Positions 51,901 to 64,000 of a DNA stretch of 64,000 nucleotides are shown in pieces; position 1 is the stretch's first letter, and the number at the start of each line of letters is the position of its first letter. The notes under the pieces are model-generated. The model was not told the DNA's origin. It did not search any database and worked only from the letters and a program-made list of their open reading frames with translations. The stretch is from positions 1,760,001 to 1,824,000 of the forward strand of contig OZ241889.1 in assembly GCA_965203355.1 (NCBI GenBank). The letters run 5' to 3'. The translations under genes and the position numbers were made by a program. Origin of the DNA: Candidatus Latescibacterota bacterium (GTDB lineage: Bacteria > Latescibacterota > UBA2968 > UBA8231).

Positions 51901-53529
51901 TTAAAAGTCGAATACGGTTTCGAGGGTCATGACTTTGTGGCGCTGCAAGCGCCTACTGGCCGTGCGCTCAAAGAGGAAGCGAGTATCCCAGCGCACCGAG
52001 GTGCCTTCTTTCATGTTCAGTTCGATGTCAAAGCCGTAGAAGGTGTCCTTGGTCGGCTCGAAGAAATCATCTCGACCGGTGCCGTCTTCGTTGGGGTTCC
52101 GGCCGATGTTGTTCTTGTGAAAGTAAGCGTACGCACGCTTGAGACGAGGGACATACTTGAGCAGTTTGCGCGACAGGGATGCGCTGGCGATGAGCTGCTG
52201 TTTTGGGATGTCGGTGCCGGTCAGGTACTGATAGGAAACCGAGGCGTACGCGTATGAGCCGAGTTCCGTGCCCAAGTGCCCGAAGAAGCCGGAGAGCTCG
52301 TTGCTATGGCCGAGCTGCGCGTCCTTGGATTGGGCCTGTCCGGTGGCGAGGTCGAGATATGCGCGATCGAGTTCGTACAGCTCGTCGAAGTAGCGCGAGT
52401 CGAAATCGCGGCGGAAGTGGCGGAAGTCCAGTTGGCCCTTGAGCGGACCTAAAGACAGCCACAGGCCTGGGGCGGCGAGTCCGAACCCGGTCGCTTGGCG
52501 GTTGCCCGGGGAGACGCCCTGCTGTCGCGCCTCAAAGCTGGAGAGGGCGTCGTCATCGTCGATCAGCAGGGCGAATTGGCCGTAGAGTTTGAGTGCTAAG
52601 CCTAGGTTGCGGATGAGCGGGTAGGCTAGGTCTAAGCCCAAGATAGAAAAGAAGTCTTGGTCAACGTGGTTTTTGTTGAAGGGTTTCTGGCGGTCCACGT
52701 CTTGGTCCACTGGAAAGGCGTTGCCGTAATTGGCGTTGAGCCCCAACAAGGTGGAGGCGATGTCGGCGGAGAGGCCGCTGCCGGCGTCGGCGTCGATGAT
52801 GCCGTCGTTGTCATCGTCGCTGTCGATGTGGTCGGGTACGCCGTCGGCGTCGTTGTCGAGGGCGAATTGGCCGTCTTCCGGGAAGGCGTCGATGGGGTCG
52901 GGTACGCCGTCGGAATCGCTGTCGCGCAGGCCGCTATACTGGTCGAGATCGGCCACAAAGGTTACGCCCACTTCGAGGGCGGCGGCGTAGCCAAAGGTCC
53001 GCAGCCCGATGAGGGCACCGCCTTCTTGGAAGTCTTGGAGGTTGTTGATTACTCCTTCGAGTCCGATATTAGTGCCGGCTAAATTGGCGATGCGAAACTG
53101 GAGTCCGGTTTTCTTGATGCCGGGATAGTGCAGGGTGTTGCGGTAGTTGTCCATGATGAGGCCGTACCCCAACGTCACATCGCTGAGTGCGCCCATTTTG
53201 ACGTACACCGCGTCATTGGGACGGCCATAGCGCACGTAGTAAATTTTGCGCAGAATCGAGTCGAAGGTCTGGGTTGACGAACCGGCCTTCCAGCCGCGCG
53301 ACCCGAGGTCGCCGTTGCGCTCGACAAACAGCTCTAAGTCGAGGCCAATGCCCAAGCGGCCTAGGGGGAAGTCGGGCCGGAGACTGAGGCGATATAGCTG
53401 CTCTTGGTCGACAGTTACGCTGCCCATGCTGAGCGAGTAGCCGAACATGGCCACCGAGGGCTGAGCCGAAGAGACGACCGGATAGAGCGAGAGCAGCAAG
53501 ACAAAGGCGCAGTTGCCGCGAAAATTCAT
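51901..53529 (-). CDS. Hypothetical outer-membrane beta-barrel-like protein with an Asp-rich TSP3-like Ca-binding insert
   Basis: Signal peptide; TLGYGLIMDNY; DSDSDGVPD...DNDADGVPD..DSDDDNDG; ends ETVFDF. Confidence 0.65.
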   Translation of the reverse strand: MNFRGNCAFVLLLSLYPVVSSAQPSVAMFGYSLSMGSVTVDQEQLYRLSLRPDFPLGRLGIGLDLELFVERNGDLGSRGWKAGSSTQTFDSILRKIYYVRYGRPNDAVYVKMGALSDVTLGYGLIMDNYRNTLHYPGIKKTGLQFRIANLAGTNIGLEGVINNLQDFQEGGALIGLRTFGYAAALEVGVTFVADLDQYSGLRDSDSDGVPDPIDAFPEDGQFALDNDADGVPDHIDSDDDNDGIIDADAGSGLSADIASTLLGLNANYGNAFPVDQDVDRQKPFNKNHVDQDFFSILGLDLAYPLIRNLGLALKLYGQFALLIDDDDALSSFEARQQGVSPGNRQATGFGLAAPGLWLSLGPLKGQLDFRHFRRDFDSRYFDELYELDRAYLDLATGQAQSKDAQLGHSNELSGFFGHLGTELGSYAYASVSYQYLTGTDIPKQQLIASASLSRKLLKYVPRLKRAYAYFHKNNIGRNPNEDGTGRDDFFEPTKDTFYGFDIELNMKEGTSVRWDTRFLFERTASRRLQRHKVMTLETVFDF

Positions 53530-53616
53530 ACAAGGGAAGATGCGGTCGCCGGGCCGCTGGTGCAATGGCTGCGGCCGCAAACGACAACGACACAACTCAC
53601 CAGAAAGAGGTTTGCG

Positions 53617-55455
53617 ATGGGACAAACGCTAAAGGAACTGCTCGATCATAGCTTCGCAACCCATGCCGAACAGACGGCCATTCGAGAGCTCAAGCCCGTA
53701 GAAGGTAGCCGCACCTTGAGCTATCAGCCCGCGACCTATGCCGAGCTCAAAAATCGCCGCGACCGGCTGGCGGCGGGTCTTGCGGCCGAGGGCTTGGCCA
53801 AAGGTCAGCGCGTGGGCATTCTCACCGATGGCGGCAGCGAACCGCTCTTGATCTTTCTGGCGACCGACTGCATTGGGGTCAGTGCGGTGCCGCTGTGCAT
53901 CCAGTCGCCCGACGAGGTGCTCGCCCACAGCATCGCGCACTCTGCGGTCGAACTGCTGGTCGTGGACCGCAAGGGCTACGAGCGGTTTGGTGCCGTCCGC
54001 GATCGGCTGGACAAGACGCCGCGGATTGCGTTGACCGAGGGCCAAGCTGAAGACGCGATCCCTTGGCAAGGGCTAGCGGAGAGCCGCGCGGCCGTGCCCG
54101 AGGTTGAGGTGCTGCCAGAAGATGAATCGAAAATTCTCTATACCTCGGGTTCATCTGGCTTGCCCAAGGGCGTGATCCAGACCCACGCCAATATCGTCGC
54201 CAACGTCGAAGAAGTTTGGGACGTAATTAGCAAGCGCCAGCCGCTGCGCCTGTTCAAGTCGGCGCCCGACTATCACTCCATGGGCATTCTCAACATCTAC
54301 TATCCCTTGGCCAAAGGGTGGATTTTGGACTTGGCGCGCTCGCCCGACCGCGTCCTCAGCGATATTCGCCTCTCAGAGCCGGAAGGCTTTCTCACTGTGC
54401 CGCTGATACTCGACAAAGTGTACGGCAATGTGCGCAAGGAAATCGATGCTGGCGGCCTCAAGGGGCGCTTGATCCAGCGCTCGGTTGCGGCTAAGGAGCG
54501 GGCGGTGCGCGGCGAGGCCGGGCTGGTCGACACGCTCTTTTGGGCGGCCATAGGCCGTTCAATAGTCGGCAAAATTCGCGCCCAACTCGCCACGCGGGTC
54601 GGGCCTCACCTCGAACTTTTGATCGTCGGCTCAGCCAAGGCCGATCCCAAGGCGTTGGACTTCTTTCACGAAGTGCTCGATATCACCACGTACGAGGGCT
54701 ACGGCACAACCGAGTGTGCGCCGCTGATTGCCGCCAACCATCTCGACGGCCGCAAAAGCGGCACGGTGGGAAGGCCGTTGCAGGCGGTAAAAATCGTGGC
54801 TGAAGATGGGGCGGAAATCGGGTACAGCGATCCAGCACAGGACGAGTGCAGGCCCAGCGGCGAGCAGATCGGGGAGTTGTGGACCAGCGGCCCCAACGTC
54901 ATGCGCGGGTATTTGCACGACCCGGAGCAGACCGAGCAGGTGTTAGTGGAAGAAGGTGGCCAGGTCTGGTATCGGACCGGCGATTTGTTCAGCATGGACG
55001 ACGAAGGTTTCCTCTCGTTCCACGGGCGAGTTGGCCGACAGTTCAAGCTGCGCAACGGCGAGTTCGTCAATCCCGAAGCCTTGGAGCGCATTTTCGCCCG
55101 GGTATCCCTAGTCGAACATGTCGTCGTGTACGGCGACCAACAGCGCGACTATCCGCTGCCGTTGGTGACCGTGGATGTGGAGGAAGCAAAAAAGAGCGGC
55201 CTTGACGGATTGCCGCTGGAGGACGAGGCCGCGCTGCGCACGCATCCGATCTTGGGCGAGCGGATCCGCGCAGGATTTCTCGCCGAGGCCACGGCCGCTG
55301 GCCTGCCGGGCTACCAGCGGCCGCAGCGCGTCGCGCTCTTGCCCGAGCCGCTGAGCGAGGATGCCGGCACCCTGACCAAGGGCCTGAAGAAGATCGTGCC
55401 CAAGGCGATCGTCGAGCGCTATCGCACGCTCGTCGAACAGACCTACGCATCCTAG
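53617..55455 (+). CDS. Long-chain fatty acid--CoA ligase (AMP-binding)
   Basis: YTSGSSGLPKG, EGYGTTE, VMRGY, RTGD. Confidence 0.88.
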   Translation: MGQTLKELLDHSFATHAEQTAIRELKPVEGSRTLSYQPATYAELKNRRDRLAAGLAAEGLAKGQRVGILTDGGSEPLLIFLATDCIGVSAVPLCIQSPDEVLAHSIAHSAVELLVVDRKGYERFGAVRDRLDKTPRIALTEGQAEDAIPWQGLAESRAAVPEVEVLPEDESKILYTSGSSGLPKGVIQTHANIVANVEEVWDVISKRQPLRLFKSAPDYHSMGILNIYYPLAKGWILDLARSPDRVLSDIRLSEPEGFLTVPLILDKVYGNVRKEIDAGGLKGRLIQRSVAAKERAVRGEAGLVDTLFWAAIGRSIVGKIRAQLATRVGPHLELLIVGSAKADPKALDFFHEVLDITTYEGYGTTECAPLIAANHLDGRKSGTVGRPLQAVKIVAEDGAEIGYSDPAQDECRPSGEQIGELWTSGPNVMRGYLHDPEQTEQVLVEEGGQVWYRTGDLFSMDDEGFLSFHGRVGRQFKLRNGEFVNPEALERIFARVSLVEHVVVYGDQQRDYPLPLVTVDVEEAKKSGLDGLPLEDEAALRTHPILGERIRAGFLAEATAAGLPGYQRPQRVALLPEPLSEDAGTLTKGLKKIVPKAIVERYRTLVEQTYAS

Positions 55456-55657
55456 AGGCTGTCGGAAAACGCTGAGGGCTGTCGTTTGTATGTAGGCAGG
55501 CTCCCCCGCTGATTCCCGCGCAAGTGGGAATGCCCACTTGATAGCGATCTCGGCAACAATATGGACCGCTGGATTCCTGCGCATGTCGTGGCACGGGGCG
55601 ACTTCTTATGCGGGAATGCCCCACCCAATGCGCCCTAGGGGTTTCATACAGTTTCTA
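55453..55657. mobile_element. MITE-like element carrying dRS3/REP-like hairpins
   Basis: Imperfect TIRs TAGAGGCTGTCGGAAAAC / GGTTTCATACAGTTTCTA (13/18); internal ATTCCC-N8-GGGAAT at 55512-55531 and a second expanded copy at 55573-55617. Confidence 0.5.
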
Positions 55658-56656
55658 AGACGGTTTCTTTGGTTTTTGCAGGCCATGTACGCGCATGCGG
55701 GAACGCAGGCGCTCTGGCTTCATGCCCAACAAGTATGCTGCGCCTTGCATTCCATAGATCACCCAATTCGTGGTTTCGAGTGCTTCTATAAGCATTTTCT
55801 TTTCGATCTCGGCGATCTGGTCCACCTTCTCGGCGATCTGGTCCACCTTGGCTACAACTCCCTGTTCAAGCATCGTAGGTGCCTTGGCTAAGTCTTCAGT
55901 TGAGATCTGCACATCCTCCAATCGTATGGAATCACTTTGGCATATAATCACCGCCCGCTGAATCAGGTGCTCTAACTCGCGCACATTCCCCGGCCAATTA
56001 TAATCCGGTCTCTGCAAATGCATTAGTACCTCTTTGCTCAGGCGCGGCGCGGGTCGCTGTAGCTCTTGGGCAAACAGGCGCGCAAAGTGTTCTGCCAAGA
56101 CCGGTATATCCTCGCGGCGTTCCCGCAAGGGCGGAATCATTACCGGGAACACGTCCAAGCGGTAGAATAGATCTTTTCGGAATGTCCCCGCTTCAGCTGC
56201 TTGTCGTAGATCTCGGTTGGTCGCGGCAATTATGCGGACATCCACTTTGATAGATGCTTCTCCGCCGACTCGAAGCAGGCGGTGGTCTTCGAGAACGTGG
56301 AGTAGCGTCGTTTGTGCCTCTAAGGGCAAGTCGCCGATTTCATCGAAAAATAGGGTACCCTTATGCGCCTGCTCAAACCGGCCGATCCGCCGCCCTACGG
56401 CACTGGTAAAGGCCCCTTTTTCATGGCCAAACAGTTCGTCTTCGACTAGTCCGGTCGGTATAGCTCCGCAATTGACCATGACAAAGGGGTTTGCTTGACG
56501 CAGGCTAAGGGTGTGGACACGCTGGGCCAACATACCCTTGCCTACTCCAGTCTCGCCTAGTATTAGGACTGTCGTAGAAGTCTGTGCTACTAGTTGGAGT
56601 TGCTCCAAGACTTTGGTCATGGCTGGGCTTTGGCTGATTATATTCTGAGAGATCAT
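55655..56656 (-). CDS. Sigma54 enhancer-binding protein (AAA+ + Fis HTH) lacking an N-terminal sensory domain
   Basis: GETGVGK, ELFGHEKGAFTSA, FDEIG, ATNRDL, FRKDLFYRL, WPGNVREL; AAA+ starts about residue 5. Confidence 0.92.
   Translation of the reverse strand: MISQNIISQSPAMTKVLEQLQLVAQTSTTVLILGETGVGKGMLAQRVHTLSLRQANPFVMVNCGAIPTGLVEDELFGHEKGAFTSAVGRRIGRFEQAHKGTLFFDEIGDLPLEAQTTLLHVLEDHRLLRVGGEASIKVDVRIIAATNRDLRQAAEAGTFRKDLFYRLDVFPVMIPPLRERREDIPVLAEHFARLFAQELQRPAPRLSKEVLMHLQRPDYNWPGNVRELEHLIQRAVIICQSDSIRLEDVQISTEDLAKAPTMLEQGVVAKVDQIAEKVDQIAEIEKKMLIEALETTNWVIYGMQGAAYLLGMKPERLRSRMRVHGLQKPKKPS
55807..55848. repeat. In-frame 21-bp tandem duplication in the bEBP linker (KVDQIAE x2)
   Basis: TCTCGGCGATCTGGTCCACCT repeated twice exactly. 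Confidence 0.9.
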
Positions 56657-56770
56657 CTTAAAACTCGTTTAGGGCTAGGGCATGACTCGCTTGAGTAGAA
56701 TAGGAATCATAGCGAGATGGATAAATGCTTCGGAATCGTATAAATAGTTCAAAAGAAGTGTTATGTCAAT

Positions 56771-56829
56771 ATCGTATTTCAATACGATTATACCTTGTTT
56801 CAATACGATTATACCTTGTTTTAATACGA
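56771..56829. promoter_or_regulatory. Putative enhancer (UAS): palindrome plus 21-bp tandem repeats
   Basis: ATCGTATT-tc-AATACGAT palindrome (56771-56788); TTTCAATACGATTATACCTTG x2 plus a partial third copy. Confidence 0.7.
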
Positions 56830-56886
56830 CTCCGATATCCATATTAAAGTAGAAAAAAATGGAAATTATCGAAGTAAAGTCATTAT

Positions 56887-56899
56887 AAACAACAGGTTA
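56887..56899 (+). promoter_or_regulatory. IHF-like binding site
   Basis: AAACAA-CAGG-TTA vs WATCAA-N4-TTR (1 mismatch), between UAS and -24/-12. Confidence 0.55.
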
Positions 56900-56928
56900 T
56901 TAACAGAACTAATCCTAATATGACATAT

Positions 56929-56943
56929 AGGCACACTTTTTGC
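56929..56943 (+). promoter_or_regulatory. Sigma54 (-24/-12) promoter
   Basis: AGGCACACTTTTTGC: GG-N10-GC matching TGGCACG-N4-TTGC. Confidence 0.8.
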
Positions 56944-57022
56944 CTTAGTGTTAAGTAAAGTGGGAACTGATAGGCGCAGTCCTAATTCCATTTATCCAAT
57001 CCGTAACACAGGAGGATTTATT

Positions 57023-57256
57023 ATGGAAAAGCTGCACAAACCCCAGCCCGCCTATGAGCCTAACAAGGTTCAGGCATACAATAATGAAAGGGGCCGTTGG
57101 ACGGATACTGGAGACGATATCCTCGATCTTCCCAATGGCTGCCGGAAATACATTCCGATGGAAATGTGTACGATCGTTTGGAACCCTAACAAAAACTGTG
57201 CTTCTATCGGAACGAAACGAGCGGATCCCGGAAGGGCCACTCGCACGGAATGCTAG
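57023..57256 (+). CDS. 77-aa four-Cys peptide, putative RiPP-like precursor
   Basis: Strong RBS AGGAGG; first gene after the sigma54 promoter; Cys40/49/59/77; followed by stem-loops. Confidence 0.75.
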   Translation: MEKLHKPQPAYEPNKVQAYNNERGRWTDTGDDILDLPNGCRKYIPMEMCTIVWNPNKNCASIGTKRADPGRATRTEC

Positions 57257-57276
57257 TACTGCCGAGGACGCGACTC

Positions 57277-57383
57277 TTTCGTTGCTAAGAGGTTTTGACC
57301 TCTTGAGTTGGCGAAAGCCCTATTTTGTTCCCACGTTTGACCCAATGAGTAGCAATTCGGCGTATACCGAATTGCTACTCATT
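57277..57383 (+). terminator. Two stem-loops after the precursor gene
   Basis: Hairpin 57277-57316 (core AAGAGGT-tttg-ACCTCTT); perfect 17-bp stem AATGAGTAGCAATTCGG-cgtata-CCGAATTGCTACTCATT at 57344-57383. Confidence 0.7.
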
Positions 57384-57427
57384 AGCGTTCTGACCATTTT
57401 GCATTGCTTGTGAAATTGGGGTCATAC

Positions 57428-58705
57428 ATGCAGCGATTTTTTAGTTTTCCTCTGAGTGGGCTAATAGCCGGTCTCGTGCTCATCGGCGAGGCCGGAAGTC
57501 AAGAGAACGTTTTATTTTGGCCAGCCAATCTGAAACACATTCCCAAACGATCCGTAGTCCAAGATGACCGTCGCCTGCACCTAAGGCTCGAAAAGGTTAT
57601 CCGCTTAAAGTTGGATGAACATACACCTGTCCTAGATAGTGTACTCAAAGGACAGTGGGCTCTAGGGGATAGTACCTTCTTTTTTATTTCCGGTGCGCTC
57701 TATGAATTCGACCAGACTGGTACCTATGTCCGTACCATCGGGCGGCGAGGTAAGGGACCTGGCGAATACCAAAATCCCACTCATGTCTCCGTAGATGCCG
57801 AGGGCCGTATTTACGTGGTAGCAGACCCCTTTCTCCTCCATGTATATGATAGAACAGGTCGTCATCTACATACTTATAAGGATCAGGCGGTCCGTCGTCT
57901 TTTCTTTGATACACAGGGAAACTTGGTGCAGTTGATAGAAGATTGGTTTGAAGCGCCGTCCGCTTGGAAAGATCGGTTCGCTCGGTTTATACCCGGGGTG
58001 AGGCATTCGCCTATATTTGTGGGGTTGACCAAGAGGAATCGGCAGGGGAAGCCTTTGTATCGGCTGGCTATCTCTACAGATGAGACCGTGGATGTCTTGT
58101 CCTATATGTTATCAAGGATTAGTCTCTGTTACAGTGAAACCAAGGATCGACTCTACTACGTGGAGCCGTGGGACTATAAAATCAAGGTGATTGATGCCCA
58201 TCGTGGACAGATCGTCGAACAATTTGGCCCCGAGCCGGAGTACTATCACAGCATGAGACGGGAAGTTGACTTTCCCATTTACGAGCCCCGTGATTCCGAC
58301 GAACTCTATGAGGCTAAGTTTAATGCATCGTTTACAGAGGAATTGCACCTGCTGGACGAGAAATATGTTCTGTATGTGTATCGCCCAGGCAAATCTGCCC
58401 TTGAGGGAGTTTTCGGGACGAAAAGGAAAGAGGTACGTGGGGGGGTTTGTCTGGCCTATGATATTAGCTCTGGAGACACCATCCGAGTTTTCCAGATGAT
58501 GAAGGAATCTCTTGACGACTGGCGATTGTATCATCCTGATTCCGAAGAAAGAGGGGGAATAAATACGGGTGGAACCAGAAGAGGAAGCTCTCCTACGAAT
58601 GTGATTGCTAGAGGGGAGTACTTGTACATTTATAAACCACCTCCAGAAAACATAATGGAGACTTCGAATGGCCGCGTCGAGGTTTTTACTGTCTCTGTTG
58701 AATGA
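57428..58705 (+). CDS. Exported 6-bladed beta-propeller (NHL-like) protein
   Basis: Signal-like N-terminus; FDQTGTYVRTIGRRGKGPGEYQNP motif; YDRTGRHL. Confidence 0.8.
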   Translation: MQRFFSFPLSGLIAGLVLIGEAGSQENVLFWPANLKHIPKRSVVQDDRRLHLRLEKVIRLKLDEHTPVLDSVLKGQWALGDSTFFFISGALYEFDQTGTYVRTIGRRGKGPGEYQNPTHVSVDAEGRIYVVADPFLLHVYDRTGRHLHTYKDQAVRRLFFDTQGNLVQLIEDWFEAPSAWKDRFARFIPGVRHSPIFVGLTKRNRQGKPLYRLAISTDETVDVLSYMLSRISLCYSETKDRLYYVEPWDYKIKVIDAHRGQIVEQFGPEPEYYHSMRREVDFPIYEPRDSDELYEAKFNASFTEELHLLDEKYVLYVYRPGKSALEGVFGTKRKEVRGGVCLAYDISSGDTIRVFQMMKESLDDWRLYHPDSEERGGINTGGTRRGSSPTNVIARGEYLYIYKPPPENIMETSNGRVEVFTVSVE

Positions 58706-58811
58706 GAAATATTCATACGAGTATAGTATGTTCACGAGAAGGGGCGAAGCACACAGCTTTCAAGTCGTGTAGGATTGCTATATAACTAAACTGTAACGAT
58801 AGAGTAACAAG

Positions 58812-59537
58812 ATGAAAGATTTTATAAAGATAAGTTCCCTAGTCGCCAATCTTTTGCTAGTGATCTTGCTGGGAATTTCTTTTGCTTGGATATATAAAGC
58901 AGAATATAGATTGTCCCACAGTTCGGGTCAATTGGCGACAGAACGCACTAGATTATATGAAGAATTTATAATTGCAACCATGATGGCAGACCGTCTTTTG
59001 GGATTGCCATTCCCTCGACTTGCTCTGGTCGATGTCTATAACAAGAATATATCAACTGATTTCTCACAAAAAGAGGGTGCCTTAATTCTCGTATTCGATC
59101 CTCAAACCTGTCAACCTTGCTTAATAGCTCAACTCAAGTTGTTGAATCATGTTTACAAACAACTTAAAAATCCAGATACATTTCCAGTCATTGCAATTGC
59201 CCCTCGCTATCACTCTCAGTTGATAAAACGATATGCTTTGAAATACGAATTGCAATATACAATAATAGCTGATAAAAAAGATCAAATCTTCAATGATAAC
59301 AATGAAGTACTTTACAAAGCAACTCCTGCCGTATATTTAGTTAATCAGAACAACACTATAATACGAAGCCATATTCCCGTATTTAGGAAACCTTATATTT
59401 CTGTTCTATTTTTTTATGAGGTACAAAATCTAATACCTCTTTCGGAGCCTATTTTTTCCTATATAGAACCTTTATTACTTATTGATGTTGTGAAAGGTGA
59501 TTTTGATCTTGAACCTATCGAGTACTTCCTCTATTGA
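58812..59537 (+). CDS. Membrane-anchored thioredoxin-fold/redoxin protein
   Basis: N-terminal TM; FP...L.D; CQPC (CxxC); cis-Pro motif TPAVYLVN. Confidence 0.75.
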   Translation: MKDFIKISSLVANLLLVILLGISFAWIYKAEYRLSHSSGQLATERTRLYEEFIIATMMADRLLGLPFPRLALVDVYNKNISTDFSQKEGALILVFDPQTCQPCLIAQLKLLNHVYKQLKNPDTFPVIAIAPRYHSQLIKRYALKYELQYTIIADKKDQIFNDNNEVLYKATPAVYLVNQNNTIIRSHIPVFRKPYISVLFFYEVQNLIPLSEPIFSYIEPLLLIDVVKGDFDLEPIEYFLY

Positions 59538-59550
59538 TTTAGAGTCTCTA

Positions 59551-61293
59551 ATGATCTATATAAACAAAAAAACAGCGAGTCGTTTTTTAGCTTTTATCAG
59601 ACCTTATTGGTTTCTACAAAGTGTAGCCTTTATTCTTGCTATATTAAGTACGGCTAGTTTATTAGTCTCTCCTTATATAACAAAGATCATAATAGATGAA
59701 GTACTTCCCAATAGAGACTTATTTTTTCTCAATATAATGCTGGTCATCCTTGTGGGCAGTATTCTCTTTCAATTGGTCATCTCATTTTTTGGCGAATATA
59801 TTTATGCTTGGATTAGTAATAATATCACTTTGGACATGCAGCAGACTCTTTTTCGTCATATGCTGAATTTCTCTTTAACCTTTTATAATCAAAATAAGAA
59901 AGGAGATATTATATATAGGATCGAAGAAGATATAGAAAATATTCAAGATTTTCTTATTACGGGTATAGTCAGGTTTATACATGATGTATTGAAAATAACA
60001 TTTATCATAATCATGCTTTGCTGGCTAAGTTTTGAGTTTTTTTTATGTTCAATCAGTATTATTCCTTTATACATCATTAGTTTGATTTATTTTAGACCGA
60101 AAATAAAAAATATTACAGAGCGTGTCCGTGAAAAACAATCTGATATATTTTCCTTTTTAGTAGAGAGATTCCACAATATTCAACTAATTCAGACGTATAA
60201 CACATACACATACGAGAGTAAAAAATTACGCAAAAATCAGACTGAATTGGTAAACCTGAGTATGAAAAGCACTGTCTATTCCGCTGCAGCGAGTACCGTT
60301 GTGAATAGCATTGTGGGTTTAACGCCAGTGTTTTTCTTAGGCTGGGGCGGTTATCAAATCATAGAAGGAAATCTAACCCTGGGAACTCTAATCGCCTTCA
60401 TGCAATACCTGTCGTTTCTATTTTCTCCAATTAATGACCTAAACAGTCTTTATTTTCAAGCTGTACGAGCATCGGTGTCCATGAATCACTTGATGGAATT
60501 TCTGGAACTGCCTACTCAGCTCAATCTAAATGGTATTGGTGCCGGCTCTGCTTCTTTCTCTTTTGAACGGAAAATAGTGTTTAACGGTATCCATTTTTCC
60601 TACGATGGAGAATCAGTTTTACAAGACTTGAATATGGAACTTATAAAAGGAAAAAAATATGCTATAGTAGGTGCTAGTGGTTGTGGCAAGACTACTCTGG
60701 TCTATCTTTTATGTAGGTTCTATCAGCCTAGTAGGGGAGCTATCTTTATAGATGACACGAACCTTGAAAATATAAATCTTTTTGATATGAGAAAACACGT
60801 TGGATTGGTGACACAAAATAATCAAGTCTTCAACGATACAGTATGGGACAATATACAATATGGAAACATAGAAAGCACTCTCAGCGAAGTTGAGATAGCA
60901 GCTAAGACACTGGATTTGGATAATTATACAGATCGAGATAATCCTGTATTCACCAGATATATTGGTGAGCAAGGAGCACAATTATCTGGTGGTCAAAGAC
61001 AGCGAGTTGCTATTGCTCGAGCTGTACTAAAGGATATAGAAATTATGATCCTGGATGAAGCAACTTCGGCATTAGATTCCAAAGGTGAGCAGATAATTTT
61101 TGCCAAACTAAAAAAGCTGTATAAAGATAAAACCATAATCCTAATTAGCCACCGACTAGCCACGGTCCAAAATGCGGATGAAATCATTTGCTTAGAAAAA
61201 GGAAGAATTGTAGAACAGGGAAACCATGGCGATCTTCTGCGAAAAAAGAGATATTATTGGCAACTCTTTAAAGATCAACTGGAGGAACGTTGA
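59551..61293 (+). CDS. ABC exporter (fused TMD + ATPase), no C39 peptidase domain
   Basis: Six TM segments; GASGCGKTT; LSGGQRQR; ILDEATSALD; ISHRL; very low GC. Confidence 0.93.
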   Translation: MIYINKKTASRFLAFIRPYWFLQSVAFILAILSTASLLVSPYITKIIIDEVLPNRDLFFLNIMLVILVGSILFQLVISFFGEYIYAWISNNITLDMQQTLFRHMLNFSLTFYNQNKKGDIIYRIEEDIENIQDFLITGIVRFIHDVLKITFIIIMLCWLSFEFFLCSISIIPLYIISLIYFRPKIKNITERVREKQSDIFSFLVERFHNIQLIQTYNTYTYESKKLRKNQTELVNLSMKSTVYSAAASTVVNSIVGLTPVFFLGWGGYQIIEGNLTLGTLIAFMQYLSFLFSPINDLNSLYFQAVRASVSMNHLMEFLELPTQLNLNGIGAGSASFSFERKIVFNGIHFSYDGESVLQDLNMELIKGKKYAIVGASGCGKTTLVYLLCRFYQPSRGAIFIDDTNLENINLFDMRKHVGLVTQNNQVFNDTVWDNIQYGNIESTLSEVEIAAKTLDLDNYTDRDNPVFTRYIGEQGAQLSGGQRQRVAIARAVLKDIEIMILDEATSALDSKGEQIIFAKLKKLYKDKTIILISHRLATVQNADEIICLEKGRIVEQGNHGDLLRKKRYYWQLFKDQLEER

Positions 61294-61296
61294 GGG

Positions 61297-61436
61297 CGAA
61301 TATTCTGCACACCCGACCAAGGCCAAGGTCGCCCCTCATTGATGGCGTACCGCTTGCGGATATTCAACTGCGTGAAGTGAGAGCGCCCATCGGCTTGGTC
61401 TCTCAGCAAGTGCATCTGTTCGGGCCCTGGAGTTGA
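61297..61436 (+). pseudogene. Frameshifted fragment of a second ABC-exporter ATPase (Q-loop region)
   Basis: 61338-61436 reads IDGVPLADIQLREVRAPIGLVSQQVHLF; upstream in another frame RIFCTPDQGQ resembles RFYxPxxG. Confidence 0.65.
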
Positions 61437-61440
61437 CCGT

Positions 61441-61908
61441 ATGAAGCAACGGCTGTTTATCACCGGCCTTGTGCTCTGGGCCGGGGTGCTGGCGGGAAGC
61501 GTGTACGCCCTCTGGTCTTATGCAGATCGCTTGCTGTCCGGTGTGCCGCTGGGCGGCTTTGAAGATGCGGCTGTTCACCGACTCAATCCGCTGGAGGCTA
61601 AGCGGAGTTTCGACCGTGGCGCGGCCGTTTTTGTCGATGTGCGATCGGCTTTTGCTTACGAGGCCGGGCACATCCTCGGTGCCTTGCACCTACCTTCCCA
61701 TGTTTCTACGGCTCACTTACGCGAAGTGCTGGCGTCTTATCCGGCGGATATCCGAGTTATCACCTACTGTTCGGGCGGCGGTTGCCAGAGCAGTCGTACG
61801 CTGGCGAAGCGACTCGTCGAAGAGTCCGTCCGCGATGAAGTCTATGTCCTGACCGGCGGCTGGCCCGCTTGGCAAGCGGCCGGGGTGGGCGAGGAGGCTG
61901 GCTCGTGA
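61441..61908 (+). CDS. Membrane-anchored rhodanese-like protein
   Basis: N-terminal TM; FVDVRS..Y..GHILGA; YCSGGGC; LTGGWPAW. Confidence 0.85.
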   Translation: MKQRLFITGLVLWAGVLAGSVYALWSYADRLLSGVPLGGFEDAAVHRLNPLEAKRSFDRGAAVFVDVRSAFAYEAGHILGALHLPSHVSTAHLREVLASYPADIRVITYCSGGGCQSSRTLAKRLVEESVRDEVYVLTGGWPAWQAAGVGEEAGS

Positions 61909-63851
61909 GCTTTCCTTTTGCGGACCAGACCGGCCGTGGCGTCAAGGTCGCAGTAGTCGATAGCGGCATCGTCCCCGATCACCCCAAGGTAGGGCCCGTG
62001 GCTGGCGGGGTTGGGCTTGCTATGGGGCCAGACGGCACCATCCGCTATAGCGACGACCACGTTGATGGCGCCGGGCATGGCACGGCCTGCGCTGGCATCA
62101 TTCGCCGCAAAGCACCGGAGGCCGAGCTATACAGTGTGCGCATCTTCGACGAGTCGCTCCAAGCCGATAGCCGCTTGCTGATTGCGGCCATTGAATGGGC
62201 CTTGGCTCAAGGCATGGACCTTATCAACCTGAGCTTGGGCACGACGGAGGTGACATACCGCGACGCTTTGGAACGGATGTGTCGGCAGGCTGCTGACCAA
62301 GGCGTCCTGTTGATAGCTGCCGAGCATGAAGAAGGCCGGGAGAGCTATCCAGCCCATTTGCCCCCAGTCATTGGCGTGGGCGCGGGCAAAGTGCGAGGTC
62401 TCTATGCGTATCACTATCGCCGAGGGGAGACCATTGAGTGTATTGCTCGGGGTGACTCCCAACGCCTATGCTGGCTGGAGCCGCCTGAGATTATGACGGC
62501 TGGCACCAGCTTTGCCGCGCCTCACCTGACCGGCTTAGTCGCTCTAATCCGCGAGGCGCATCCCAAGGCCGACTTGGAATCAGTGCGTCAACTCCTGCAC
62601 CTTCACGCCCCTCCTACTGCTCGCTCCGTGCCCAAATCCATTGTCCCATCCGAGGCCGAGGAGTCATTCGCTTGGATCCAGAAAGCCGCGCTCTATCCCT
62701 ACAACAAGGAAATGCACGCCCTAATGCGCGGGCGCGATCTGCTCGGCTTTGAGATCGTTGGCATCGGTGATCCCATCGGCAAGGGCCTGACCGGCCAAGA
62801 CGCCGGTCAGGCCCTTGGCCTACCCCCGGTGGGCTTTCAAGTTGCGCCGCGATTGGCTGTGGCCCTGCAAGGGGCTGATACCCTCATTTTGGGATATGTA
62901 GATGAACTGGGTCGCATCCGCAAAAAGGACGTTTTGCGCGAAGCCGTGCAACTGGCACTGGATCAAGGCGTTCACGTCTTCAGCCTGCTGGCCCTGCCCC
63001 GCGAGGGCTACGCCGATTTGTACGAACAGGCCGCGGCCAAGGGCCTGCGCCTGTACTATCCGGCGTTGTCGGCCAAAGACGCGCAGCAGACCCTCGCCTC
63101 GGCCGGGGAGTATCCCCAAGTGGATGTGCCAGTTGTGGCGGTCTTGGGTACCAGTTCACAGCAGGGCAAGTTCACGCTGCAACTGGCCTTGCGTCGCCGC
63201 CTGCTGGAACGGGGCTACCGAGTCGGACAACTCGGCACCGAGCACCACGCCGCGCTGTTCGGCATGGACTGCGCTTTCCCGATGGGCTACGCCGCATCCA
63301 TCGAGATGCCCCTGGATTATTACGCTCCCTACTTAGACGCCAAGATGCGCCAAATCAATCAACGCAAGTGCCCGCATATAATCTTGGTCGGCAGCCAATC
63401 GGGCACCGTGCCGTACAACGTAAGCGAACCCACAACCCACACTCTGTCCACCGTCGCCTTCCTAATGGGGGTCAAGCCAGACGCCTGCCTACTGGTGGTC
63501 AACAGTATAGATACCGACGACTACATTCAGGACACCATAGACGGCATCCGAGCGATGTGCCACGCACCGACCCTGCTGTTGGCCATGAGCGATAAGGAAA
63601 AGCACGTGCGGGAGGCGTATGGGCGCACCGCTATAAAACCCCGACCCATGCGCACAGAAGACCGCCGCCGCAAGTTGCGCCACTTGGAACAGACGTTTAA
63701 GCGGCCGGCCCTATCCATCGCCTCCCAAGCCGATGTCCACAAGGCTGTCGAGGTGGTGATTGACTATTTCGCCGAGAACGAGAATAAGGTACTTGGTAAC
63801 GAAGGGGTCTCAGGTGTGAAACACCCTCGCGCCAGGGCGGTGGCTGGATAG
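61905..63851 (+). CDS. S8 subtilisin-like peptidase fused to a DUF1611 (DgcN-like P-loop) domain
   Basis: GTGA overlap; triad VVDSG, GHGTACAG, GTSFAAPH; C-terminal VAVLGTSSQQGKFT P-loop and VGSQSG; no signal peptide. Confidence 0.8.
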   Translation: MSFPFADQTGRGVKVAVVDSGIVPDHPKVGPVAGGVGLAMGPDGTIRYSDDHVDGAGHGTACAGIIRRKAPEAELYSVRIFDESLQADSRLLIAAIEWALAQGMDLINLSLGTTEVTYRDALERMCRQAADQGVLLIAAEHEEGRESYPAHLPPVIGVGAGKVRGLYAYHYRRGETIECIARGDSQRLCWLEPPEIMTAGTSFAAPHLTGLVALIREAHPKADLESVRQLLHLHAPPTARSVPKSIVPSEAEESFAWIQKAALYPYNKEMHALMRGRDLLGFEIVGIGDPIGKGLTGQDAGQALGLPPVGFQVAPRLAVALQGADTLILGYVDELGRIRKKDVLREAVQLALDQGVHVFSLLALPREGYADLYEQAAAKGLRLYYPALSAKDAQQTLASAGEYPQVDVPVVAVLGTSSQQGKFTLQLALRRRLLERGYRVGQLGTEHHAALFGMDCAFPMGYAASIEMPLDYYAPYLDAKMRQINQRKCPHIILVGSQSGTVPYNVSEPTTHTLSTVAFLMGVKPDACLLVVNSIDTDDYIQDTIDGIRAMCHAPTLLLAMSDKEKHVREAYGRTAIKPRPMRTEDRRRKLRHLEQTFKRPALSIASQADVHKAVEVVIDYFAENENKVLGNEGVSGVKHPRARAVAG

Positions 63852-63913
63852 GGCTTCTGGGCTATTTATCTGGGGAACGGATGATGCCCATTTGGGGTAG
63901 GGCACTGGGCGGG

Positions 63914-63936
63914 ATTCCTGCTTTCGCGGAAATGAC
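63914..63936. repeat. dRS3/REP-like palindromic repeat
   Basis: ATTCCTGCTTTCGCGGAAATGAC, a variant of ATTCCC-N8-GGGAAT also seen at 55512. Confidence 0.6.
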
Positions 63937-64000
63937 GACAGAGAGCGGTAGAAAGTCGCCGAGGAAAACGACTGCTTATCACCAGTGAGGAAAACAGAAT

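Follow-up and report, generated by a model that had tools for sequence, protein, structure and literature searches.

The last part of the window (the whole 64-kb stretch of DNA that was analysed) holds a gene cluster whose most likely product is a small cysteine peptide that is cleaved, perhaps acylated, exported, and folded through disulfides. It is most likely an uncharacterised RiPP-like system, its chemistry being deduced from its genes. A sigma54-controlled peptide maturation and export operon working through the steps proposed below is the reading we favour and regard as reasonably probable. The cluster is real and conserved, and its order is not a chance neighbourhood: the series propeller, redoxin, ABC, rhodanese, S8-DUF1611 recurs in the same order in other Latescibacterota genomes (loci L001, L002, L003, L099, and L104), and parts of it are found in L013, L094, L097, L107, L112, and L113. 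The preliminary description had reported seven genes, and each was found at or near its reported place. The features are as follows.

55655..56656, − strand: divergent sigma54 enhancer-binding protein (bEBP), AAA+ domain and Fis-type HTH, PspF-like architecture
56769..56831, + strand: three tandem 21-nt repeats with the core TTTCAATACGATT, 76–100% identity
56930..56943, + strand: sigma54-type −24/−12 element GGCAC-N5-TTGC, in the 366-nt bEBP/peptide intergenic region
57023..57256, + strand: precursor peptide of 77 aa, a conserved leader and a 58-aa core with the 4 Cys
57344..57383, + strand: perfect 17-bp hairpin (inverted repeat, 100% complementary), 3' of the precursor gene
57428..58705, + strand: exported NHL/DUF5128-type beta-propeller (PF17170 DUF5128 '6-bladed beta-propeller', 9.3e-11, over a partial stretch)
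58812..59537, + strand: membrane-anchored thioredoxin-fold protein (ResA/TlpA-like) with CQPC (AhpC-TSA/Redoxin, PF00578, PF08534)
59497..61293, + strand: half-size ABC exporter, TMD and NBD (ABC_membrane PF00664, 1.4e-44; ABC_tran PF00005, 1.9e-32)
61441..61908, + strand: membrane-anchored rhodanese-fold protein (PF00581, 1.1e-17), N-terminal anchor, active-site loop C-S-G-G-G-C
61905..63851, + strand: S8-DUF1611, cytoplasmic subtilisin-like protease fusion (Pfam Peptidase_S8, DUF1611_N, DUF1611_C)
63978..64000, + strand: start of an ACP gene (RBS and the 'AT' of ATG), cut by the window end; 23 nt identical to those before the ACP ATG in L096

Regulation and intergenic elements

Sigma54 control, suggested in the preliminary description, gained support from the −24/−12 promoter motif located between the bEBP and peptide genes. 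According to Pfam, the bEBP comprises Sigma54_activat (PF00158, 1.4e-66), AAA_lid_14 (PF25601), and HTH_8 (PF02954), with no N-terminal sensor domain, and its translation gives GAFTSA as the sigma54-contact loop. Homologues adjoin the sister clusters L002, L098, L113, and L114, and similar −24/−12 elements occur in L002 (1576), L004 (3167), L011 (4082), and L013 (666). The motif has 2 matches in the 64-kb window, with 0.94 expected. The 21-nt repeats, which sit ~100–160 nt upstream of the element, could serve the bEBP as an upstream activator site. As for the hairpin, the 157-nt region that contains it folds at −56.7 kcal/mol (z = −5.9), and it may act as a transcript stabiliser or attenuator.

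Precursor peptide and leader family

According to the neighbourhood analysis, the small ORF is, as had been supposed, a true gene of precursor type, which is conserved and tied to S8-DUF1611 across phyla. It has AGGAGG 7 nt upstream of the ATG and matches none of the Pfam or NCBIfam families, NCBIfam precursor models included. The leader follows the consensus M-x-x-L-x-K-P ... phi-x-A-Y, all 19 aligned peptides sharing M1, L4, K6, and Y19, while the core is hypervariable (21–41% identity among cores); most Cys-type cores have a Trp 4–8 residues past Tyr19. A search of 1.84 billion proteins with the leader profile returned 21 at E ≤ 1e-3, the window's own peptide being one of the matches, and 17 of these, alike in the leader, align from their first residues (16 from residue 1 and 1 from residue 8).

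Peptides of this leader type adjoin S8-DUF1611 in 23 of 40 loci (15/25 among L001–L017 and L093–L100 and, at HMM E < 0.1, 8/15 among L101–L115), Firmicutes and Ignavibacteriota among them, including Acetatifactor (L016 and L017) and Rosettibacter (L010). The profile found no such ORF in the other 17, and L014 and L100 have weak candidates only. The type of core, Cys-bearing or mostly Cys-free, tracks the accessory genes: in propeller/redoxin/rhodanese clusters 7 of 7 peptides have 2–5 core Cys, whereas in HlyD/TPR clusters 5 of 6 have none (core counts for L104, L112, and L113 are 2, 5, and 6, respectively).

The S8-DUF1611 fusion

The start of S8-DUF1611 is better placed at GTG 61905, in overlap with the stop codon of the rhodanese gene, and this start fits a 648-aa database protein. 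S8-DUF1611 is 59–86% identical to its relatives, and its catalytic triad is intact, D19, H58, and S202 being invariant in 54 of 54 sequences. Where subtilisin has its oxyanion-hole Asn, the alignment gives Glu for the window's clade (Glu in 11 and Asn in 41 of 54), so the protease may be slow or single-turnover. Among NCBIfam models, the S8 half scores highest on QhpE (151 bits, below the cut-off of 165). Cytoplasmic cleavage followed by export through a peptidase-free ABC, as proposed in the preliminary description, has an experimental precedent in QhpE and QhpF (PMC7876137).

The model of the DUF1611 half (pLDDT 85) matches the structures 2G0T, 7XRJ, and 2OBN; for 7XRJ, 'N-acetyltransferase DgcN', Foldseek reports E 1.8e-13 and TM 0.55/0.64. 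The DUF1611 half scores only 18 bits on the DgcN NCBIfam model (cut-off 480), and the TIGR04066 match of S8-DUF1611 is 108 bits (cut-off 200). A P-loop-like G-T-S-x-Q-Q-G-K in the DUF1611 half is invariant save at the x position. Complex prediction for S8-DUF1611 with the precursor gave 0.36 against 0.00 for the best control (no interface given), within a range, up to 0.60, that held only 7 of the 80 solved complexes and both mismatched pairs that passed; 58 of the 80 solved complexes attained the mark itself, as did 2 of 110 mismatched pairs. With at least 55% of contacts agreeing between runs and partner pLDDT of at least 42, this weakly supports a predicted pairing of precursor and protease.

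Genes beyond the window

The preliminary description ended the cluster at 63851, which is wrong: the window's last two bases already belong to the ACP start codon and the operon is cut at this point, so the gene list in that description was incomplete. An ACP follows S8-DUF1611 in most relatives and is present in 33 of 40 loci (13/17, 6/8, and 14/15); of the 7 loci without it, 4 end at a contig edge. In an 85%-identical relative the ACP is followed by a 214-aa unknown protein, a BtrH-like transferase (BtrH_N/DUF4872), and an MFP/RND pump, and judging from relatives of 72–86% identity the window's genome presumably carries the ACP, BtrH-like, and RND genes as well. The suggestion that the peptide is possibly acylated is strengthened by the DgcN-like fold of DUF1611 and by the ACP and BtrH-like transferase that follow in relatives.

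Within the window there is no modification enzyme with proven peptide chemistry. The radical SAM that had been declared absent was indeed not found there by tblastn with two queries, and tblastn of the window also gave no match for GNAT, ACP, the BtrH-like gene, or MauE. GNAT genes are present in the sister clusters L004, L099, L104, and L107, and L002 encodes a radical SAM enzyme of SCIFF/PapB/QhpD-like type, which scores 228 bits against QhpD, under cut-off.

Export and thiol components

Pfam detected no Peptidase_C39 in the ABC exporter, which shares 38–47% identity with its counterparts in sister clusters and is best matched in NCBIfam by MsbA/HlyB-type exporters, with CydC/CydD sub-threshold. 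The redoxin has a hydrophobic N-terminal anchor and keeps CQPC in 7 of 7 orthologues; by NCBIfam it is ResA-like, under cut-off, with no MauD match. In the rhodanese C110 and C115 are kept in 6 of 6, and MauE follows this gene in L094. The oxidative folding postulated earlier accords with such periplasmic thiol chemistry, cores of 2–6 Cys occurring with propeller, redoxin, and rhodanese and mostly Cys-free ones with HlyD/TPR.

As for the propeller, its AF2 model (pLDDT 70) is best matched in the PDB by 4RAA, an exported Bacteroides protein (E 1.8e-12), followed by NHL domains. It diverges fast, with one close homologue only (76%) in 5.8 billion proteins and 23–33% identity to its sister-cluster counterparts.

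Proposed course of maturation

The bEBP would switch on the −24/−12 promoter ahead of the 77-aa precursor, whose leader (~19–26 residues), common to many S8-DUF1611 clusters, would be recognised in the cytoplasm by the fusion protein. The subtilisin half would then cut off the leader, the likeliest site lying at or just past Tyr19, and the DgcN-like DUF1611 half, together with the ACP and the BtrH-like transferase, probably adds to the peptide an acyl group or another group bound to the carrier, the simplest target being the N-terminus that cleavage exposes. The C39-less ABC exporter would carry the product into the periplasm, where the anchored redoxin with its CQPC and the rhodanese with its C-x4-C may handle the four Cys by disulfide formation or isomerisation. 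The fast-evolving exported propeller may be the cognate periplasmic partner, and the product may be expelled by the MFP/RND pump that relatives encode downstream.

Comparison with known systems

ACP-dependent N-acylated RiPPs are known as goadvionin- and selidamide-type lipopeptides. Similarly to these, the precursor-peptide cluster includes an acyltransferase-like gene and one for a carrier protein; however, no PKS or fatty-acid synthase genes are seen, there is no GNAT in the window, and the transferase candidates are DUF1611 and BtrH_N/DUF4872 rather than GNAT. The DUF1611 half shares the two-domain fold of DgcN (the DUF1611-family N-acetyltransferase, 7XRJ) but, unlike that free-standing enzyme, is fused to a protease and ACP-linked, with marginal sequence similarity. 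MauD and MauE serve to make the disulfides, six in number, of the Cys-rich small subunit in methylamine dehydrogenase (MADH). Here too a periplasmic thioredoxin-fold protein is encoded beside a Cys-rich exported small protein, although the window has no MauE and the redoxin does not match MauD.

In quinohemoprotein amine dehydrogenase (QHNDH) maturation, QhpE cuts the leader in the cytoplasm before the ABC pump QhpF exports the product (PMC7876137, also the source for the six disulfides of the MADH small subunit). Qhp (QhpC precursor, QhpD radical SAM, QhpE, and QhpF) likewise combines a small Cys precursor bearing an N-terminal leader with a cytoplasmic subtilisin-like protease, a peptidase-free ABC, and a propeller encoded alongside. 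In contrast, the window lacks a radical SAM, a haem subunit, and QhpG; its S8 forms one protein with DUF1611, an ACP gene comes next, the cores are hypervariable, and several paralogous clusters occur per genome, with up to 8 S8-DUF1611 matches in one.

The preliminary description held that the cluster fits no recognised class, which was too strong, since a cluster type in which S8, TIGR04066 (DUF1611-like), ACP-like, radical-SAM, and ABC genes are separate had already been noticed in Firmicutes. This TIGR04066/TIGR04069 'peptide maturation system', exemplified by the SacP23 cluster of Paenibacillus polymyxa #23 and by Roseburia intestinalis L1-82, has a CcpM-type radical SAM (TIGR04068), a subtilase, and an ABC; the roles given for TIGR04066 and the ACP in these accounts are guesses (PMC10731318, PMC4573289). 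Both types place DUF1611-like, ACP-like, subtilase, and ABC genes near a Cys-rich peptide. Here, however, S8 and the DUF1611-like part form one protein, there is no radical SAM, the peptides match no NCBIfam precursor model, and propeller, redoxin, rhodanese, sigma54 control, and the BtrH-like gene are additional. Fused S8-DUF1611 together with radical SAM does occur in Firmicutes (L015–L017).

Alternative explanations

The base composition raises the prospect of two unrelated units, a mobile cassette of low G+C that comprises peptide, propeller, redoxin, and ABC and was inserted beside a resident rhodanese/S8-DUF1611/ACP/BtrH/RND module that makes or exports an acylated small molecule and leaves the peptide untouched. 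G+C falls sharply to 0.32–0.49 between 56.7 and 61.3 kb, with flanks of 0.61, so the variable module may be a recent arrival and its link to the S8-DUF1611 core young. Identity also drops from S8-DUF1611 (59–86%) through rhodanese to propeller and redoxin (23–34%), and a ~96%-identical relative from sponge metagenome-labelled runs matches bEBP, peptide, and propeller up to 58978, where the match ends. However, sister clusters have the same lower-G+C pattern, which makes it a trait of the module rather than of a one-off insertion; contigs from other studies span both G+C junctions, S8-DUF1611 begins before the rhodanese gene has ended, and the leader family accompanies S8-DUF1611 into other phyla with wholly different accessory genes. 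We consider this reading unlikely.

Only slightly more doubtful is a QHNDH/MADH-like assembly line for a periplasmic enzyme, with the Cys peptide as cross-linked small subunit and the propeller as large subunit; S8 would take the part of QhpE, the ABC that of QhpF, and the redoxin (joined by MauE in L094) that of MauD/MauE. The qhp precedent (PMC7876137), the QhpE match, the ABC without peptidase domain, the adjoining propeller and peptide genes, the Trp following Tyr19 in most Cys-type cores, the sub-cut-off QhpD score in L002, and MauE beside the rhodanese in L094 all agree with it. Yet cores (21–41%) and propellers (23–33%) are far less conserved than S8-DUF1611 (59–74%), unlike enzyme subunits; Pfam reveals no haem subunit, QhpG, or MauG in the cassette, single genomes hold as many as 8 S8-DUF1611 matches, and many same-leader S8-DUF1611 clusters have Cys-free cores and no propeller. 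Amine dehydrogenase propellers are seven-bladed, and that of the window is NHL/DUF5128-type. A sigma54-controlled envelope thiol-redox or cytochrome-biogenesis-type system (CydDC-like ABC, ResA-like redoxin, and rhodanese) with a spurious small ORF is highly improbable: it draws on the sub-threshold CydC/CydD and ResA matches, but a strong RBS, database homologues, and the conserved leader speak for the ORF, the ABC best matches MsbA/HlyB-type exporters, and the linkage to a protease-DUF1611 fusion and an ACP is left unexplained.

On the favoured reading of a RiPP-like maturation and export operon, the cluster presents a protease fused to an enzyme domain that has a candidate role in peptide maturation.

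Gene content and regulatory elements

The preliminary description had listed the genes of a sigma54-controlled cassette for maturation and export of a small Cys-containing peptide. According to domain scans with Pfam and NCBIfam, all of these genes are present in the window, and the observation is confirmed; its interpretation as a RiPP-like system is partly supported. The features are as follows.

55655-56656, - strand: divergent sigma54 enhancer-binding protein (bEBP), with sigma54-interaction AAA+ domain (PF00158, 1.4e-66), lid, and Fis-type HTH, without sensor domain
start 57023: precursor peptide of 77 aa with 4 Cys; AGGAGG lies 7 nt 5' of its ATG
57428-58705: exported DUF5128/NHL-type propeller
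58812-59537: membrane-anchored thioredoxin-fold protein (redoxin)
59497-61293: half-size ABC exporter without C39 domain
61441-61908: anchored rhodanese
61905-63851: fusion of Peptidase_S8 and DUF1611 (S8-DUF1611)

As for regulation, the intergenic region between the bEBP and peptide genes contains a GGCAC-N5-TTGC -24/-12 element at 56930, one of 2 matches across the 64-kb window (vs 0.94 expected), and three 21-nt tandem repeats further upstream (56769-56831). With a bEBP that has the AAA+ sigma54-interaction domain and with a -24/-12 promoter element, the cassette appears to be a sigma54-dependent operon. A perfect 17-bp hairpin (57344-57383) is located 3' of the peptide gene, in a region that folds with z = -5.9. 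The Rfam scan of 55000-64000 returned no known RNA family, and scans for sigma70 promoters and terminators gave matches at chance level only.

Beyond the bEBP lies an AMP-binding (acyl-CoA/ACP ligase-like) gene (53404-55455), which was weighed as a loader of the acyl carrier protein (ACP) and left out of the system because none of the 40 related loci contains a counterpart (0/40). The 574-aa ORF at 51901-53625 (- strand) matches neither a Pfam nor an NCBIfam family; its product, which has Asp-rich DxDxDG-like repeats, may bind calcium or belong to the outer membrane. The spacer 3' of S8-DUF1611 was considered as a dispersed repeat, an idea dropped because the window contains a single copy.

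Precursor peptide family

Small ORFs near S8-DUF1611 genes share a common N-terminal leader, in which M1, L4, K6, and Y19 are invariant in 19/19 aligned peptides. Its consensus is M-x-x-L-x-K-P-x(7-11)-phi-x-A-Y, and the cores downstream of it (19-133 aa) are unalignable; the precursor gene therefore combines a conserved leader with a variable core, as is generic for RiPP clusters. Among the 40 loci of S8-DUF1611 relatives compared with the window (L001-L017, L093-L100, and L101-L115), leader-type ORFs are found at 23, the window's own being additional. These comprise 15 of the 25 loci L001-L017 and L093-L100 (in three cases by regular expression only) and 8 of the 15 loci L101-L115 (by HMM at E<0.1). 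Leader-type candidates in L014 and L100 are weak, and upstream sequence is cut off in L012, L013, L096, and L097.

The leader family extends to Acetatifactor (L016, L017) and Rosettibacter (L010). Searched against 1.84 billion representatives, a profile of residues 1-33 matches 21 proteins with E<=1e-3; 17 of them, including the window's peptide, align from their first residues and have the same leader. NCBIfam precursor models gave no match at E<=10 for 8 leader-family peptides (including the window's and that of L017), and the window's 77-aa peptide has no Pfam or NCBIfam family.

Core type tracks accessory genes across clusters. Clusters with propeller, redoxin, and rhodanese have cores of 47-58 aa with 2-5 Cys in 7/7 peptides, and the cores of L104, L112, and L113 contain 2, 5, and 6 Cys, respectively. 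Clusters with HlyD, TPR, and CAAX genes have acidic cores of 85-133 aa, Cys-free in 5/6, and the cores of clusters linked to radical SAM (rSAM) genes are Cys-rich.

Several variants deserve a separate description. L004 (7206-7589), L005, L006, L011, L093, and L095 carry the same leader with acidic, mostly Cys-free cores of 85-133 aa, in clusters that contain HlyD, TPR, CAAX-protease, and GNAT genes; near-perfect -24/-12 elements occur at L004 3167 and L011 4082, 5' of a response-regulator/AraC gene. In L008 (3415-4415), three tandem precursor genes encode the same leader and hydrophobic membrane-like cores with 4 Cys, each with a GYI end, which represent another kind of cargo served by the shared processing module. 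L094 (5679-19636) has the ACP gene 5' of S8-DUF1611 and two precursors with very acidic 4-5-Cys cores, with a sulfotransferase and two UDP-glucose dehydrogenase-like genes upstream.

Distribution, synteny, and assembly integrity

The S8-DUF1611 search yielded 441 proteins at E<=1e-3 among 8000 candidates scored, and the 120 matches listed have 55-100% identity over 86-98% of the query. The fusion forms a large, well conserved family. Within the phylum, matches at E<=1e-100 are present in 72 genomes of a sample of 150, at most 8 per genome; among the genomes of five named loci, three have 4-5. The loci nearest to the window belong to Candidatus Latescibacterota metagenome-assembled genomes (MAGs). 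Among further matches (L018-L080), many loci of Actinomycetota, Chloroflexota, and Brachyspira match the S8 half only (33-44% identity), without DUF1611. Several S8-DUF1611 matches contain a single in-frame TGA; its reading as selenocysteine was rejected for L094, where, as the match continues past it, this TGA is the stop codon of the gene itself.

The order propeller-redoxin-ABC-rhodanese-S8-DUF1611 recurs in L001, L002 (with its near-duplicate L114), L003, L099, and L104, and partial gene sets are present in L013, L094, L097, L107, L112, and L113. Identity to the window declines along the operon, from 59-86% for S8-DUF1611 through 46-61% for the rhodanese and 38-47% for the ABC exporter to 25-34% for the redoxin and 22-33% for the propeller (the L094 rhodanese is a partial match with 38%). 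The operon thus combines a conserved core for processing with a cargo module that changes fast. Over ~56.7-61.3 kb (peptide, propeller, redoxin, and ABC genes), G+C is as low as 0.32-0.49 vs 0.61 around, and sister clusters show a milder drop over the propeller, redoxin, and ABC genes. This trough suggests a cargo module that is swapped or fast-evolving beside a stable core.

The cassette is no assembly chimera. A public contig of 12.6 kb, which may be the source of the window DNA itself, covers 55000-64000 without difference and extends ~2.4 kb beyond the window end. Two other studies also have bridging contigs, the second study a contig over 61073-61835 and the third, under the label sponge metagenome, contigs over 55968-57290 (~96% identity). 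The sponge-metagenome contigs match the bEBP, peptide, and propeller genes at ~96% and break at the hairpin region (57290-57403) and in the redoxin gene (58978). Past 58978, matching is confined to a short stretch around 61335-61478, into which 436 other letters are inserted; the redoxin/ABC segment of a close strain may be a different one.

Predicted genes downstream of the window end

As a full cluster, the gene list of the preliminary description is incomplete because the window end cuts an ACP start. The window terminates at '...GAGGAAAACAGAAT', inside this start, so that the ACP gene begins at its last bases; the last 23 bases are identical to a stretch of L096 ending in the ACP ATG, and the S8-DUF1611 of L096 is 85% identical. 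An ACP gene (PF00550) occurs in the same locus as S8-DUF1611 at 33/40 loci, and 4 of the 7 loci where it was not found reach a contig edge. Regarding ACP type, those of L001, L002, L010, and L016 match generic ACP models below cut-off, with TIGR04069 not listed among the matches. In L001, L096, L099, and L107, the ACP gene is followed by genes for a 214-aa protein without family, a BtrH_N/DUF4872 protein, and an MFP; large ORFs of 1040-1180 aa, taken for a putative RND pump, lie 3' of the MFP in L001 and L096. The 214-aa protein has no Pfam family, and its protein atlas matches are only 'hypothetical protein' clusters.

Properties of the encoded proteins

In the S8 half, the triad of Asp, His, and Ser202 is invariant in 54/54 relatives. 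With this triad and the ABC exporter, a predicted leader peptidase and exporter are encoded together with the precursor, as is generic for RiPP clusters. Residue 142, aligned to the oxyanion-hole Asn of subtilisin, is Glu in the window's clade (11/54) and Asn in 41/54. By analogy with QhpE, the protease of quinohemoprotein amine dehydrogenase (qhp) maturation, Glu142 may be associated with slow or single-turnover cleavage. The available text of PMC7876137 describes QhpE as a cytoplasmic enzyme that cleaves the QhpC leader in a single turnover, followed by export through the ABC pump QhpF.

The DUF1611 half has the two-domain DUF1611 fold (PF07755, PF17396) with a P-loop-like motif, G-T-S-x-Q-Q-G-K, which is invariant apart from the x position. 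The P-loop Lys is Lys422. Its model (pLDDT 85) matches best 2G0T, 7XRJ ('N-acetyltransferase DgcN', E 1.8e-13), and 2OBN. As for pairing with the precursor, the predicted S8-DUF1611/precursor complex scores 0.36 (best control 0.00; no interface given), with contacts agreeing at >=55% between runs and partner pLDDT of at least 42. The mark for such predictions is reached by 58/80 solved complexes and 2/110 mismatched pairs, and at scores <=0.60 it is passed by only 7/80 solved complexes and by both passing mismatches; the prediction thus lends weak support to the pairing.

The propeller model (pLDDT 70) matches 4RAA, a Bacteroides exported protein of unknown function, and NHL domains, with no enzyme among the top structural matches; a word-indexed homologue search gave a single close relative, uninformative on function. 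CQPC of the redoxin is invariant in 7/7 orthologues, as are C110 and C115 of the rhodanese loop in 6/6. From the charges flanking the one hydrophobic segment of each protein, we infer that the redoxin and rhodanese domains both face the periplasm. In L094, a MauE-family membrane protein is encoded directly 3' of the rhodanese.

Comparison with known systems

Three known systems share the logic of the cluster, which at curated thresholds falls outside each of them. Sactipeptide and ranthipeptide systems have an rSAM/SPASM thioether maturase by the precursor, whereas tblastn with the rSAM proteins of L002 and L010 gave no match in the 64-kb window and no rSAM gene lies in the fetched flanks of the close relatives L001, L096, L099, and L104; it is this absence that sets the cluster apart from them. 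Elsewhere, rSAM genes accompany S8-DUF1611 in L002/L114, L010, and L015-L017. Those of L002 and L010 are of the SCIFF/PapB/QhpD kind, those of L015 and L016 match TIGR04463 (RiPP rSAM/SPASM-like), and that of L017 was detected by tblastn only. AntiSMASH 'ranthipeptide' calls are reported for sponge Latescibacterota MAGs, the available text of that source being without detail on these genes. As for the qhp system, QhpE (NF049966) is the top NCBIfam family of the S8 half, although its 151.0 bits are under the curated cut-off of 165, and the window cassette differs in having no QhpD rSAM and, in its seven proteins, none of the haem-subunit or flavoprotein families to be expected of the dihaem subunit QhpA and the flavoprotein QhpG.

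The third system is that of the Firmicute TIGR04066 clusters, Paenibacillus polymyxa #23 (SacP23) and Roseburia intestinalis, which in the available text of PMC10731318 and PMC4573289 are known from annotation only and comprise a CcpM-type rSAM (TIGR04068), TIGR04066, an ACP-like TIGR04069, a subtilase, and an ABC exporter. The same text only guesses at the roles of TIGR04066 and the ACP-like protein, with 'immunity' (for TIGR04066, in the SacP23 paper) and 'modification' as the suggestions. The DUF1611 half matches TIGR04066 ('peptide maturation system protein') over residues 272-634 with 108.2 bits vs a curated cut-off of 200, and is a distant relative only; the window peptide does not match the curated Cys-rich precursor family of that system, whose peptide is TIGR04065. 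In the literature searched, supplementary files aside, there is no experimental study of a DUF1611/ACP module in peptide maturation, and the search for DgcN returned unrelated acronyms only. What is new here is a fused, rSAM-less, sigma54-controlled form of this annotation-only cluster type, equipped with propeller, redoxin, and rhodanese.

Proposed pathway

The best-supported reading of the cluster is a RiPP-like pathway. Transcription of the precursor would be driven by sigma54 and the bEBP, and the hairpin 3' of the peptide gene may stabilise or partly terminate the transcript. The S8 half would recognise and cleave the leader in the cytoplasm. With subtilisin preferring hydrophobic P4 and aromatic P1 residues, cleavage after Tyr19 seems favoured because phi-x-A-Y would place such residues at these positions. 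A carrier-protein-dependent step would then fall to the DgcN-like half together with the ACP and the BtrH-like protein. Acylation is suggested by the DgcN-like fold, the linkage to an ACP gene, and the BtrH name of the Pfam family, the butirosin enzyme BtrH being an ACP-dependent acyltransferase. The ABC pump would export the peptide product, the redoxin and rhodanese would carry out thiol-disulfide handling, and the product may interact with the propeller and, in relatives, possibly be expelled by the MFP/RND proteins. Besides the DUF1611/ACP/BtrH-like set, both the redoxin and rhodanese are candidates for core modification.

A further-reaching version of this RiPP-like pathway can be put forward only tentatively and seems rather unlikely. 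According to it, S8-DUF1611, the ACP, the 214-aa protein, and the BtrH-like protein would form an unrecognised leader-guided machine that couples leader proteolysis to carrier-dependent capping (acylation) of the new N-terminus, and would define a new RiPP class with its own leader family over Latescibacterota, KSB1, Ignavibacteriota, Myxococcota, and Firmicutes. In the propeller variant, a disulfide-folded product and a co-diversifying periplasmic propeller would constitute a specific peptide/receptor or peptide/immunity pair.

Significance

As a peptide-processing system of uncharacterised chemistry, the cluster is real, widely distributed, and conserved. DUF1611-like (TIGR04066) and ACP-like proteins have long been unexplained in predicted peptide clusters, and three handles are now available: the leader family M-x-x-L-x-K-P ... 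phi-x-A-Y, the DUF1611-protease fusion, and the structural N-acetyltransferase link. With these, the function can be addressed directly through co-expression and mass spectrometry. The processing module is wired to varied cargo, with Cys-rich, hydrophobic, and long acidic cores. Since it is common (72/150 sampled genomes of the phylum) and its cargo types are very different, the module probably serves as a general device for peptide processing, and as a source of new peptide products, in bacteria that are little studied and in part associated with sponges.
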